DNA of 52,315 bases, taken from the IMG/VR virus record IMGVR_UViG_3300038371_000007, positions 1 to 52,315 of that record; one strand, 5' to 3'. Under the pieces are notes generated by a model. The model did not search any database and had not been told where the DNA came from. It saw only the letters and a list, made by a program, of their open reading frames with translations. Position 1 is the stretch's first letter; each line of letters begins with the position of its first letter. This document shows, one piece after another, positions 1,045 to 50,506 of the stretch. This DNA is from a virus (taxonomy: Duplodnaviria > Caudoviricetes). Made by a program: the position numbers and the translations under genes.

Positions 1045-1074
1045 TTGACTCACCCCCTGCCTTGTGCTTAAAGT
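1045..1074 (+). promoter_or_regulatory. Putative sigma70-type early promoter P5
   Basis: TTGACT-18 nt-TAAAGT. Confidence 0.55.
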
Positions 1075-1148
1075 GAGTTACGAAATTTAGTCCAGCCATT
1101 AGATTGGCAACGAAAGTTGGGATAGTAGTAGCAGAAGAACTGCGCGCT

Positions 1149-1770
1149 GTCTGCATCAGCTAAGGGGCTGTACATAGTCGTCGTCTTTAGGCGTCGTGCA
1201 TCTTTACTAGGTAGGGTGTGCGTAAAAGGATCGGCTTGTATAGCTACGCTATGTAGGTGGTAATCGAATGCCCCAGACTACACGGCGATGTGTAGGTAGT
1301 GGACGTGCGACCACGATAGGCGCATAACAAATGTATGCGGGGCTAGGACCAGTTTGCCCTTGTGCTGTAGAATGCACATAATGACGGCGGTGTAACTCCG
1401 CAAACGGCTGACCTTTACTGCGATGCCGTGCAGCCTTGCCCTGTTACAGGGGGTTGTGTGAGCTGGCGCTAGGCTATCCTAGTTGTCGCCCGAGATGTGT
1501 TAGCTCACTCAATGTTGTGTTCCTCTCGTATGTGAGGTTGATATTCATATACACGAGATAGTAAGCTGCGACGGTGGCTTACTGGGGTGCAGATAATAAT
1601 CGGTGACTGCTGGGCCGATAGTCTGACACTGTAATCGTGGTGATACTTGGTCGGTTGTAGAAATACACAGGCTGGGTCCGAAACATAACCTAAGTAGGTA
1701 CGGTGGTACTATCCTGTCTTTGCTGACCGGCACATGGGATAGTTGAGGGTAATCAGTAAGTCCCTCCCCC
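1149..1770 (+). ncRNA. Candidate large structured non-coding RNA, family unidentified
   Basis: No + strand ORF of 60 aa or more. Long-range stem TCTGCATC(1150-1157)/GGTGCAGA(1586-1593) encloses many hairpins with G-U pairs and a GCGA tetraloop. Confidence 0.55.
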
Positions 1771-1846
1771 ACTCTTATGTATATGAATGTTAACCTGTGA
1801 AAATGTTATGCGATGGCCGCTGTGCCATCTAACAGGAGAAAATAAT

Positions 1847-2053
1847 ATGCAGTATTTGAAAGAAATGCCATGTGGCAACCGCAAGCGTGTTAGTCAATCA
1901 ACGTGGATGCTTGACCGTTATATGTCAGGCTACACACAAATCATCGCCACCAGTGCGCTGACGATCTATAAGATGGGTGACACTGCGTCTGTCTCTCGTC
2001 CTCTGAAGTATGGTGGACGTGCTCAGCCCGGCTATCATTGGAATGGTGCGTGA
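1847..2053 (+). CDS. Hypothetical early protein (68 aa)
   Basis: AGGAG RBS before ATG 1847. Confidence 0.6.
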   Translation: MQYLKEMPCGNRKRVSQSTWMLDRYMSGYTQIIATSALTIYKMGDTASVSRPLKYGGRAQPGYHWNGA

Positions 2054-2927: not shown

Positions 2928-3005
2928 GGCCCCGTAGCTCAGCTGGATTAGAGCCGGGAACTTCTAATTCTCAGGTCGCAGGTTCGAGTCCTGCCGGGGT
3001 CGCCA
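2928..3005 (+). tRNA. tRNA-Arg, anticodon TCT (reads AGA)
   Basis: GGCCCCG/CGGGGTC acceptor stem, TAGCTCAGCTGGATTAGAGC D arm, CTTCTAA anticodon loop, GGTTCGAGTCC T arm, encoded CCA. Confidence 0.97.
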
Positions 3006-3204: not shown

Positions 3205-3359
3205 AGCGTTGGGAAGTCTTACTCACTGCCAATGACAGGACAGTGTTTGAAGTTCCCCTATCAACCACAAGATTTGGAGAGAGCGAGCAAGAGGTTCGCT
3301 CTCACTTCACAACCTTAGGCTACAGGGTAGCCAGTGTAACAGAGGTAAGTTTGAAATGA
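3201..3359 (+). CDS. Small hypothetical protein (52 aa, MKRWEVLLTAND...)
   Basis: ATGA overlaps with both neighbouring genes. Confidence 0.65.
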   Translation: MKRWEVLLTANDRTVFEVPLSTTRFGESEQEVRSHFTTLGYRVASVTEVSLK

Positions 3360-3784
3360 AAAAGTTTCTGAAGTCCGTCGTCGTCGCCATGTCCATGGGG
3401 CTGGCAAGCACAGCAAGTGCTGGCATTTTCTCCGATGATGCGGAGGTTGCATCCCGTAACCTGAGCAAGGCGGCAGACAACTTTGAGATTCTCCGTCGTG
3501 TTGTGTTCATGAATGGCATCACCGACCGCTACATGCTGGAGATCATCGGCCTGTGCTCCATCGTGGATCAGCACAACCAGCTTGAGGTGACGTGCAAGAC
3601 GGACGAGGGTTTCAAGAAACACTTCCTCGGCCTGTCTGATAATGTCACCTACTTCGTGGAGCAGATTGCCGTGGCTGATGTGAGCGTCAATCACTACCGC
3701 GTGACGTTCAAGCCTCAGGCTCTCATCCCTGACTTCGATCTGCGTGGTGACTGGTCCGACCTGTTCACAAACACAGCCAAGTGA
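3356..3784 (+). CDS. Conserved secreted phage protein with signal peptide
   Basis: Signal peptide ending ASA; motifs SRNLSKAADNFE, VFMNGIT and KKHFLGLSDNVTYFVEQ recognised from a widespread phage family. Confidence 0.8.
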   Translation: MKKFLKSVVVAMSMGLASTASAGIFSDDAEVASRNLSKAADNFEILRRVVFMNGITDRYMLEIIGLCSIVDQHNQLEVTCKTDEGFKKHFLGLSDNVTYFVEQIAVADVSVNHYRVTFKPQALIPDFDLRGDWSDLFTNTAK

Positions 3785-48504: not shown

Positions 48505-50506
48505 CTACGCAAGGTTGTACTTAGCGGTGACGATGGCTTCCGGACGCAGGATCTTACGACCGTACAGGTGCATACCACGTACGATGTCTGCGAAGGATTC
48601 AGGGTCACGGTAAGTCTCAGTCTGGTTGATCTGCTCAGCAGTTGCAACAGCAGAGTCATGGCCAGCTACCAGTACACCGAAGTTCTCGTTCTGGTTGGCA
48701 GTGCCAGTGGTGCCCGGACCAGTACCTACGACAGGAAGGTTGTTGGATACGTAGACCCGGAAACCGTTCCAGTTGTTCAGCATCAGACCGTTGCGCAGTG
48801 CGCCAGCCTCACCGTAATCTGCATCGAGGAAGCGAGAGTCTTCATCGCACAGGACTTCCCACAGAACCGGATCAACAACGAGCCAGCGGCCCATCTTGTC
48901 CACGAACTGTTGGTCAAGCAGACGACCCATACGGGTAATCACTTGGTGCGGGGAGACGTATGCAGTCGGCAGGGAGGTAGCACCCGGCAGACGAGGACCA
49001 ATCGGAATGGAGTGATCGCCAGCAGATGCAGTGGTGATCGAACCGAAGGAGTCCTTACGCAGCTTCATGGTGGGAAGCAGTTCGTCGCTGTCTGCGGTCG
49101 GGATGGCCCGTGTACCATTGACGGTGGTGTTAACCTCATCTGCGTTCACGTGCAGGCGAGACTGTGCATAACCGGACAGGTAGCCCAGAACCTCTTGGTC
49201 GTGCTGGTCAGCCAGTCGGTAGGCAGCACGGTTGGTTGCGAGGTCCATGAAGTTGACGTGCGAGTGCGCCTCTTCAATGTCGTCGATCTTGAAGGCGAAG
49301 TAGTTCGACTTATCAACGACCAGAGAGAAGTCCTCGTCGTCCAGATCTTGAGCAGTGATTTGAGTACCACGCTCGTACGGACGTACGGAGATTTCCGGTT
49401 CTTTGATGATTCGTACGGTGTCACCCTGTGCAGAGATCTCACCGAAATCAGTAATGTTATCGTAGAGATGTTTATTCTTCTACTTCTTTAGGTTTCCCTA
49501 AAGCTCGGACTATATCATCATCCACTCGAAAGTTAGGATGCTTCGCACTCTTGCGAAATACAAACTTCATAGCAGGGAGTATCTTATACGACATGCTTGG
49601 TATAATGTACTCTTGAACAGTGTTAACGAGGGAGAGGGTGGCTTGTGTAGCACCCCCCACGTCATACTTACCCTTAGACTTAAAACTCTTGGCATCAATA
49701 CCAAAAGAACCTTTAAGCCACTCCACAAGAATATTAGCTTCTTCCTCGCTACACTGGGTGCAGATACGGAAGCTGAGGGATGTAACCTCTCCTTGCTTAT
49801 TCTTGTTGGCCATAATACTTCCGTCGTCCATGTACCACAACGCTAAGCTGTGTGCATCCATGAAAGACAAAGCCTTCCGAGAAATCACTTTCTTCTTGTC
49901 CACTGGGTACAGAACCTTATGCATCTGCCGGAAGTACTTCCCGGACTTGCAAATCCTATAACCGTTGTAGGTCTTGCCAGTGGCCTTGAGTGTGTGCTTT
50001 GTGTTAGACACCTTAGGCTCTTTGCCCCCCAGTACACTTTTAAGCAATGCTGCTTTATGCTTAATGTAGTCGTACTGCTTTAGGCCATGCCCTATGATAA
50101 TCTCAGAAGATGTGTATGGGTACTTGCCATCCTTAAGTCTTTGCCTACAGGAGATGTGACCATCTCCGATAACGAGGCCGTATAGGATAGCTCTATTCTT
50201 ATTGTTCATCTATTCACCCTTTGCTAAAGCTGGGATCTGTGTTTGTACTTCGTAGTCTCTGAACCTTCCCCTCTCGGGGCTTGGCTGCTGATTAGCCTAT
50301 CCTCATCAAGACGTAGCCTTCCAGCAATTCACGAAGTTTTCGACACGCATTACTACGTGAAGGACCATTTATGTTTAGTCAGAGTTGGTAATGTCACCAA
50401 CAACTGTTGTTTTGCGGAAAGCCAGTTGAACCTTCTTGGAATAGATTACAGAGCTGAAATTACCCTGAGGAAGGTTGCCGTGGCCCGGTGCAGCTTGAAA
50501 TGCCAT
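48505..50506 (-). CDS. Major capsid protein, spliced: exon 1 50506-50377, exon 2 49448-48505 (357 aa)
   Basis: Joining the exons gives MAFQAAPGHGNLPQGNFSSVIYSKKVQLAFRKTTVVGDITNSD-Y-FGEISAQGDTVRIIKEPEI...DIVRGMHLYGRKILRPE; 130+944 nt = 358 codons; AAAGGA RBS. Confidence 0.92.
49449..50376 (-). mobile_element. Group I self-splicing intron (928 nt) in the major capsid gene
   Basis: Exon ends in U and intron ends in G; P1 GACU/GGUC with U-G pair; P AATTGCTGGAA (50329-50319), Q AATCAGCAGCCAA (50293-50281), R GTTCAGAGACTAC (50264-50252), S GATATAGTCC (~49516-49507). Confidence 0.93.
49472..50209 (-). CDS. Intron-encoded LAGLIDADG homing endonuclease
   Basis: ILYGLVIGDGHI and LALWYMDDGS motifs; C-terminal IIPSMSYKI. 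Confidence 0.92.
   Translation of the reverse strand: MNNKNRAILYGLVIGDGHISCRQRLKDGKYPYTSSEIIIGHGLKQYDYIKHKAALLKSVLGGKEPKVSNTKHTLKATGKTYNGYRICKSGKYFRQMHKVLYPVDKKKVISRKALSFMDAHSLALWYMDDGSIMANKNKQGEVTSLSFRICTQCSEEEANILVEWLKGSFGIDAKSFKSKGKYDVGGATQATLSLVNTVQEYIIPSMSYKILPAMKFVFRKSAKHPNFRVDDDIVRALGKPKEVEE

Follow-up and report, generated by a model that had tools for sequence, protein, structure and literature searches.

Structured early leaders occur in T7-type phages (e.g. the RNase III site before gene 0.3), and phage HK022 carries put, a promoter-proximal anti-termination RNA of ~70 nt with two stem-loops. We analysed the early leader of a virus record in IMG/VR (IMGVR_UViG_3300038371_000007; 52,315 bp, 99% completeness estimate), the whole of which is called the window below; it is a near-complete marine podophage related to Zobellviridae. 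This untranslated leader probably holds two independent structured-RNA modules, namely module A, a conserved element of ~385 nt, and module B, which resembles the manA RNAs. According to Weinberg et al. 2010 (PMC2864571), manA RNAs were almost exclusively marine, occurring in T4-like cyanophages and, as two copies, in gamma-proteobacteria, and were proposed as cis-regulators and riboswitch candidates. In a 2026 preprint (bioRxiv 10.64898/2026.07.01.735769), manA RNAs formed closed particles of 8, 10 and 60 subunits in vitro, homo-oligomeric closed assembly of other manA RNAs was described by cryo-EM, and peripheral helices varied among variants.

The leader was compared with that of a related phage (IMG/VR contig 3300010430_000353, here L003), of a distant relative (oyster phage KZY1-k141_1027853, here L002) and with contigs from four further public runs of two other studies (X5–X8). 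By BLAST, bases 1163–1521 were 77.2% identical over 368 nt to L003 4291–4653, above the 72.3% over 591 nt of the next conserved gene, and almost nothing of bases 1–1134 could be aligned. Fragmentary contigs of X5–X8 covered 1135–1284, 1261–1440 and 1390–1521 at 95–99% identity. L002 kept two blocks, 1177–1235 (85%, matching L002 1287–1347) and 1463–1500 (87%), yet its neighbouring protein was only 48% identical. On these comparisons module A appears to be under selection.

Module A also appears to be non-coding. Stop codons interrupted each of the six frames of 1135–1521: no frame had fewer than 4 in the window, 5 in L003 or 6 in L002, and none was open in all three homologs (4–17 stops per frame). 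As the initial annotation had it, 1149–1770 contained no credible + strand open reading frame (ORF); the longest was a 41-aa TTG-start frame at 1436–1561. This frame, together with a mildly uneven phase of the substitutions (26/20/37), could be taken to mean that small ORFs or leader peptides account for the conservation. The frame crosses the 1520/1521 boundary described below, however, and the runs of full nucleotide identity are unlike coding sequence, which makes that explanation barely credible.

At present module A is known from three assembled phages and the fragments of the four runs. It gave no Rfam match at E ≤ 10. IUPAC patterns drawn from its two invariant blocks (five on viral contigs, one on metagenome contigs and two on genome contigs) revealed no further homolog, and returned only the contig of L003 or an identical metagenome contig (100% over 3732 nt). 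From one viral-contig pattern, 118 of 119 stretches were discarded as showing no further likeness, many of them being one repeated coding sequence, and the single genome-contig match was attributed to chance, lying inside a 394-aa ORF with BLAST likeness confined to the motif. A search by nhmmer with the three-sequence alignment detected nothing in the loci of 11 relatives, and covariance models of the 5′ block (R1) and the central junction (R2) detected nothing in 21; among 24 sources R1 found only the copies of the window, L003 and L002. Across the deeper split, to L002, only the 5′ and 3′ blocks of the element were shared. Among the paper titles listed for Zobellviridae, CW02 or Salinivibrio, none concerned such leaders.

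A consensus fold of the window and L003 comprised 101 pairs, of which 76 were unchanged, 13 compensatory, 12 one-sided and none broken. The consensus energy was −106.4, against −66.4±5.4 in 200 column shuffles (z −7.4, 0/200 as good), and the 13 compensatory pairs exceeded the 5.5±2.1 of the shuffles. Since this test was partly circular, the structure was also predicted from one sequence alone, with substitutions shuffled among columns of the same base as the null. The minimum free energy (MFE) structure of the window alone gave 9 compensatory pairs against 2.4±1.4 expected (P ~2e-4); that of L003 alone gave 12 against 2.8 (0/5000 shuffles), and only 21 broken pairs against 33.4 expected (P ~2e-4). 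The + strand consensus was more stable than that of the minus strand (−106 vs −85 kcal/mol), and one-sided changes of the G-U type numbered 12 on the + strand and 4 on the minus. Three full sequences and fragments from four runs were too few for an R-scape-type test; the pairwise tests were positive. The local helices thus seem well supported, while the global fold looks unsettled.

Several helices of module A changed sequence and kept pairing (Table 1). The outer stem of the 5′ block read CGUGC/GUGCG in the window, CGUGU/AUACG in L003 and CGCU/AGCG in L002, and paired in all three. Compensatory double changes between the window and L003 numbered two in helix 1278–84/1289–95, three in 1439–42/1449–52, four of the five pairs in 1361–65/1374–78 and one pair in 1387–90/1398–1401; the closing helix of the junction and 1404–08/1425–29 never varied. 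The 3′ hairpin, which carries the conserved 3′ strand UUGUCGCCCGAGAU, was mostly identical between the window and L003 against 77% overall, and in the contigs of all four other runs a G1466A change turned a G-U pair into A-U. RNAalifold structures from three sequences were not used as such, because MAFFT misaligned L002 outside the two conserved blocks.

The complementary segments named in the initial annotation were all present, and comparison with relatives sorted them. Its stems at 1278–95 and 1439–51 gained support from the double changes in L003. That at 1458–1508 was invariant in L003, and at this place L002 has a different second helix (CCGACA/UGUCGG, by eye). The pairing 1164–68/1270–74 was tentatively retained in L003 (4/5 pairs, one double change), and that at 1321–39 was kept only in part.

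Separately, ACUAGG (1207–1212, loop region of the 5′ block) was complementary to CCUAGU (1478–1483, 3′ block), which also pairs locally with GCUAGG (1468–73), all three being invariant in the three phages; a long-range or alternative pairing between 1207–1212 and 1478–1483 is possible from the letters.

The similarity to L003 ended at 1521 and resumed at 1846, with 65 nt between these points in L003. Contigs of all four runs departed from the window at 1520/1521 and matched again from 1846; that of X7 bridged the gap with 424 unrelated letters, and in L002 the slot was occupied by an annotated 57-aa ORF. Because relatives keep module A yet replace or omit 1521–1846, this segment is a replaceable cassette. 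By blastn it had no match at E ≤ 10 in the phage collection, and a 22-mer from its 3′ hairpin had none in the viral contig collection.

These boundaries bear on the initial annotation, which had proposed one multi-branched RNA of ~600 nt and of a new class (1149–1770), almost fully pairable and closed by a helix 1150–57/1586–93. Its complementary segments do exist, and long-range pairs do occur in the MFE structure of the stretch as a whole. Pairing did not go beyond chance, however: the MFE was −222.1 kcal/mol against −215.7±6.0 in 20 dinucleotide shuffles (z −1.07, 1/20 as good; minus strand z −0.72). The 5′ arm of the closing helix was not conserved in L003 and its 3′ arm lay inside the manA match, so that the helix would join a non-conserved segment to the interior of a cassette absent from relatives; the cassette boundaries therefore ruled it out. 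Comparative data divided the stretch at 1520/1521, with 1521–1846 absent or replaced in L003, L002 and the four runs and 1135–1520 kept. We consider a single RNA highly improbable. What stood of the claim was a conserved + strand secondary structure; and of the outcomes named beforehand as speaking against it, folding no better than shuffles was observed, whereas homologs did covary over 1135–1520.

Cmscan of bases 1–2000, reported at E ≤ 10, matched the full length of the manA model (Rfam RF01745) to 1564–1776 with 51.1 bits (E 1.2e-11, for 2 kb × 4227 families). The only other hit was a chance-level 15-bit long non-coding RNA (E 1.4); there was no match to the models for GOLLD, ROOL, introns, transfer-messenger RNA (tmRNA) or RNase P that the initial annotation had brought up, GOLLD and ROOL being among the models of Rfam 15. 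A search of the whole record gave a single manA copy (E 7.3e-14), with no hits in 14 control genomes. Helix P1 was intact (AGCUGC-GACG-GUGGCU, 1564–1579, with a GACG loop), and the 5-bp pseudoknot was present (UGGGG 1583–87 with CCCCA 1767–71). In the 3′ domain, the 7-bp helix 1708–14/1737–43 and the terminal hairpin 1745–49/1762–66, with GGGUA..CAGUAA..UCCC, were aligned with high posterior probability; a GGUA element was also found. Three stems of the initial annotation (1560–83, 1708–43 and 1745–66) turned out to be helices of the manA model. The 3′ third of the stretch is thus no new class and falls within a known family or on its margin; the 5′ module has no Rfam family.

Module B shares with described manA RNAs the full model match, P1, the pseudoknot and the GGUA and GGGUA..CAGUAA..UCCC elements and, as described in PMC2864571, a place in a potential 5′ untranslated region (UTR) and a marine phage source. 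Unlike the T4-like cyanophage carriers described there, the carrier here is a Zobellviridae-related podophage; the downstream gene encodes a 68-aa protein of unknown function rather than being a sugar, nucleotide or photosynthesis gene; and module B rides on a cassette absent from close relatives. Rfam scans found manA in none of 23 relatives' loci, and in none of four whole relatives' records, which gave one 7.5-bit match (E 0.57). This setting, in the early leader of a podophage, on a cassette and before a small gene of unknown function, is new for manA. By analogy with self-assembling RNAs (manA cages, 10.64898/2026.07.01.735769; GOLLD, ROOL and OLE complexes, PMC12286853), the manA match may place module B among RNA-only assemblies, a kinship at which the GOLLD and ROOL comparison of the initial annotation had hinted, although neither of those two was matched by the leader in sequence or by model.

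Several results weigh against reading the leader as two structured RNAs. The manA score was 4.1 bits under the Rfam gathering score of 55.2, and the central hairpins aligned poorly (non-standard pairs, long insertions and low posterior at model positions ~60–115). Module B is therefore labelled manA-like, and is probably a divergent member of RF01745 below the curated threshold. In single-sequence folding, neither the whole stretch nor module A (1161–1525 alone, z −0.58, 24/100 shuffles as good), the manA-like part (1560–1780 alone, z −0.71, 49/200) or L003 did better than shuffles. In the MFE structure of the window alone, 25 of 112 pairs were broken in L003 against 28.6 expected, and alternative helices compete. 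The covariation came mainly from one sequence pair, L002 sharing two blocks only; with filters off, R2 scored 4.6 bits on L002, where the central junction was not recognisable. G1433 was replaced by A in L003 and in contigs of 4/4 runs, and in the runs the partner, as given by the initial annotation (its stem 1406–35, which thus fell away) or by the first consensus fold, was unchanged. This change breaks either pairing unless G1433 is unpaired; the four-way-junction model escapes the conflict because G1433 is unpaired there. Among the public runs listed as containing the sequence, none was an RNA run.

The near-zero z-scores, and the fact that the homologs are few and of one small clade, might suggest that module A is conserved by recent descent only, with its structure an artefact of G+U-rich sequence and the manA cassette alone functional. 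The manA-like part failed the shuffle test too, so the test has little power on G+U-rich sequence, and the question of structure was therefore settled by comparison with relatives. Module A surpassed the flanking gene in conservation, and the remaining leader by a wide margin; most of 1453–1513 was identical within a 77% background, compensatory changes were in excess with the structure taken from one sequence only, and two blocks persist in L002 where the neighbouring protein is only 48% identical. Recent descent alone is, on this evidence, very unlikely.

Module A could also be a DNA-level control element (regulator operators, a replication origin or a packaging signal). It separates late (−) and early (+) genes that point away from each other, its minus strand gave an equally good shuffle z (−7.6), and its two most conserved blocks contain palindromes with a CTAGG core (CTTAC-TAG-GTAAG and CTAGG-N4-CCTAG) that could be protein-binding sites instead. 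Its stems, however, covary rather than keep their sequence (four of five pairs at 1361–78, three at 1439–52 and, in three phages, the 5′ block's outer stem), which indicates that pairing, rather than a recognition sequence, is under selection. The + strand is favoured by both the G-U pairs and the difference in energy, and the element does not overlap the promoter-like site but occupies the stretch 60–475 nt beyond it. A DNA-level role is distinctly unlikely, and an RNA-level function of some kind for module A is likely.

Table 1. Positions of the RNA modules and neighbouring features in the leader.
Feature	Position	Strand	Description or basis
Sigma-70-like site	1045–1074	+	TTGACT, 18 nt, TAAAGT; consensus scan and pattern scan; last before leader
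Module A, conserved structured non-coding element, candidate	~1135–1520	+	Similarity, covariation, no conserved ORF; no Rfam family
5′ conserved block	1177–1235	+	Hairpin CGUC-UUUA-GGCG (1182–1193), two-tier hairpin, single-stranded UAAAAGG
Two-tier hairpin	1195–1199/1218–1222 and 1202–1207/1211–1216	+	UAG loop; covarying outer stem
Hairpin CUACACG-GCGA-UGUGUAG	1278–1295	+	L003 CUGUACG-GCGA-UGUACAG, two double changes
Candidate four-way junction	1336–1432	+	RNAalifold, window and L003
Junction helices	closing 1336–38/1430–32; hairpins 1339–1360, 1361–65/1374–78, 1387–90/1398–1401, 1404–08/1425–29	+	
Hairpin CCCU-GUUACA-GGGG	1439–1452	+	L003 CGGG...CCCG, three double changes
3′ long hairpin	1453–1513	+	GUUG/CAAU, GUGAGCU/AGCUCAC, GGCGC/GUGUU, apical UAGG-CUAU-CCUA
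Swappable cassette slot, here with manA-like RNA	1521–1846	+	Relatives' sequences differ
Module B, manA-like RNA (RF01745)	1564–1776	+	cmscan, model positions 1–192 of 192
Shine-Dalgarno AGGAG (1834–38) and first early ORF (ATG 1847, 68 aa)	1834–2053	+	ORF list

From the observed conservation, covariation, manA match and cassette boundaries, we infer transcription, the promoters and every functional step as follows. Host RNA polymerase would initiate within a group of sigma-70-like sites, of which the last (1045–1074) would give a transcript start near 1081, and would read through module A, then the cassette, then the early genes from the ORF at 1847. Module A would fold into a series of covarying hairpins together with what is likely a four-way junction and, towards its 3′ end, a long hairpin that is near-invariant between the window and L003. 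It would work on the early transcript as a whole, as an RNA element close to the promoter, or else be processed into a stable RNA. Module B, probably a divergent manA-type RNA on a mobile cassette, might by analogy with manA regulate in cis the gene that begins 70 nt downstream, or assemble with itself into an RNA particle.

What follows module A varies by phage (65 nt, the manA-like RNA, 424 bases or a small ORF). Since this sequence is freely exchanged, module A most likely does not mask a neighbouring ribosome-binding site, and its placement suggests a function independent of the following gene. Given an RNA-level function, a role in cis, through the processing, stability or anti-termination of the early transcript, is a tenable guess, and a released trans-acting RNA is somewhat less likely. 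As in T7-type leaders, module A lies downstream of a host-type promoter cluster and just upstream of the first early gene, and it has a long imperfect hairpin (1453–1513) that in L003 ends 65 nt before the start codon; unlike a single processing hairpin, it is ~385 nt, far larger and of many helices. Like put, module A stands close behind an early promoter, in a place independent of the following sequence, although put has ~70 nt and two stem-loops and the likeness is one of description only. We regard module A as a candidate for a new structured-RNA motif, its pairwise covariation being good but drawn from few sequences.

Matches to TTGAC..TAnnnT numbered eight window-wide, four of them within 684–1074. 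The core GCCTTGTGCTTAA of the 1045–1074 site was found twice in L003, one copy ~95 nt upstream of the homologous element, so that a conserved promoter-like site precedes the leader, in agreement with the initial annotation. The motif GCCTTGTGCTTAA(A/G) occurred at promoter-like sites of both phages (window 1058–1074; L003 3838–3852 and 4177–4191), and may be a phage-specific site for an early promoter or a regulator. Terminator-like sites were as frequent as expected (3 vs 3.6), none being identified as needing read-through, and there was none between 1045–1074 and the first ORF. The ATG at 1847 follows the end of module B by 70 nt on the same strand, and no terminator-like site separates the two. 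The start region of the first early ORF was kept in L003. PHROG scans of the first five ORFs, including this one, gave no family.

Bases 1–1846 contained no credible ORF in the ORF list and lay between the late (−) and early (+) blocks, an arrangement shared by L003. The + strand encoded a T7-type replication module (primase/helicase and DNA polymerase) plus a ribonucleotide reductase. Large minus-strand ORFs at 30.7–52.3 kb were taken to be the late block; of four scanned, one matched an amidase/virion-protein family and three had no match. The rightmost minus-strand ORF extends past the end of the record, and no end repeats were found in its 52,315 bp. Gene 2287–2871 had relatives in 16 phage records. 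Annotations fetched for 11 of these (Salinivibrio CW02, Citrobacter CVT22, Erwinia Pecta, Klebsiella and Vibrio phages and five oyster-metagenome phages) placed nine in Zobellviridae and two in Caudoviricetes only.

Downstream of the leader, contigs of X7 and X8 joined 2053 to 2217, with just CC in place of 163 bases, so that most of a 69-aa frame (2010–2219) is in a second segment variable among close relatives. The tRNA expected 1.2 kb downstream was confirmed as tRNA-Arg UCU at 2928–3005 (Rfam cmscan and ARAGORN); ARAGORN found no tmRNA. At gathering thresholds, cmscan of the window gave only the tRNA and, on the minus strand at 49486–50386, a match to the group I intron model (RF00028; 63.6 bits, above gathering), both outside the leader. 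A 245-aa minus-strand ORF (49472–50209) overlapped the latter; a late gene may be interrupted here by an intron that encodes a homing endonuclease. A 142-aa + strand protein (3356–3784) with a signal-peptide-like N-terminus matched PHROG 478 (E 1e-46); the label of this family, recombination directionality factor, looks doubtful here, as the protein appears secreted. In one relative (L126), a model of a plant microRNA precursor matched bases 69–186 with ~72–73 bits on either strand; this is presumably a long perfect inverted repeat by a tail-protein gene and not a microRNA.

In other relatives, 0.85–1.76 kb without annotated genes lay ahead of the same early gene (L125 2230–3986, L126 2714–3560, L130 2888–3980, L131 2629–3723, L132 2453–3977, L133 2490–3971 and L134 1–1767). 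Some of these leaders shared non-coding blocks (L126 2833–2936 with L131 3080–3185, 77%; L132 with L133), and they may hide further RNA modules. In a distant relative (L147), a type II hammerhead ribozyme (RF02276) was matched at 1956–2026 (+) with 37.3 bits against a gathering score of 37, in the leader ~1 kb upstream of the homolog of gene 2287–2871, and is thus a further structured RNA at a comparable location.

No function has been known for manA RNAs since 2010. The position of the cassette suggests a role in early infection, and a removable manA cassette in the earliest leader offers a natural comparison of near-identical phages with and without it. A bolder proposal, which we think unlikely as matters stand, is that module A represents a new class of large phage structured RNA made first in infection and that 1521–1846 is a hot spot at which related phages swap RNA cartridges, the cage-forming manA RNA among them. 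If this were true, the early leaders of Zobellviridae-like phages would be more than 5′ UTRs and would serve as arrays of RNA devices acting in trans in host take-over or counter-defence, a picture that the hammerhead in another relative's leader fits.

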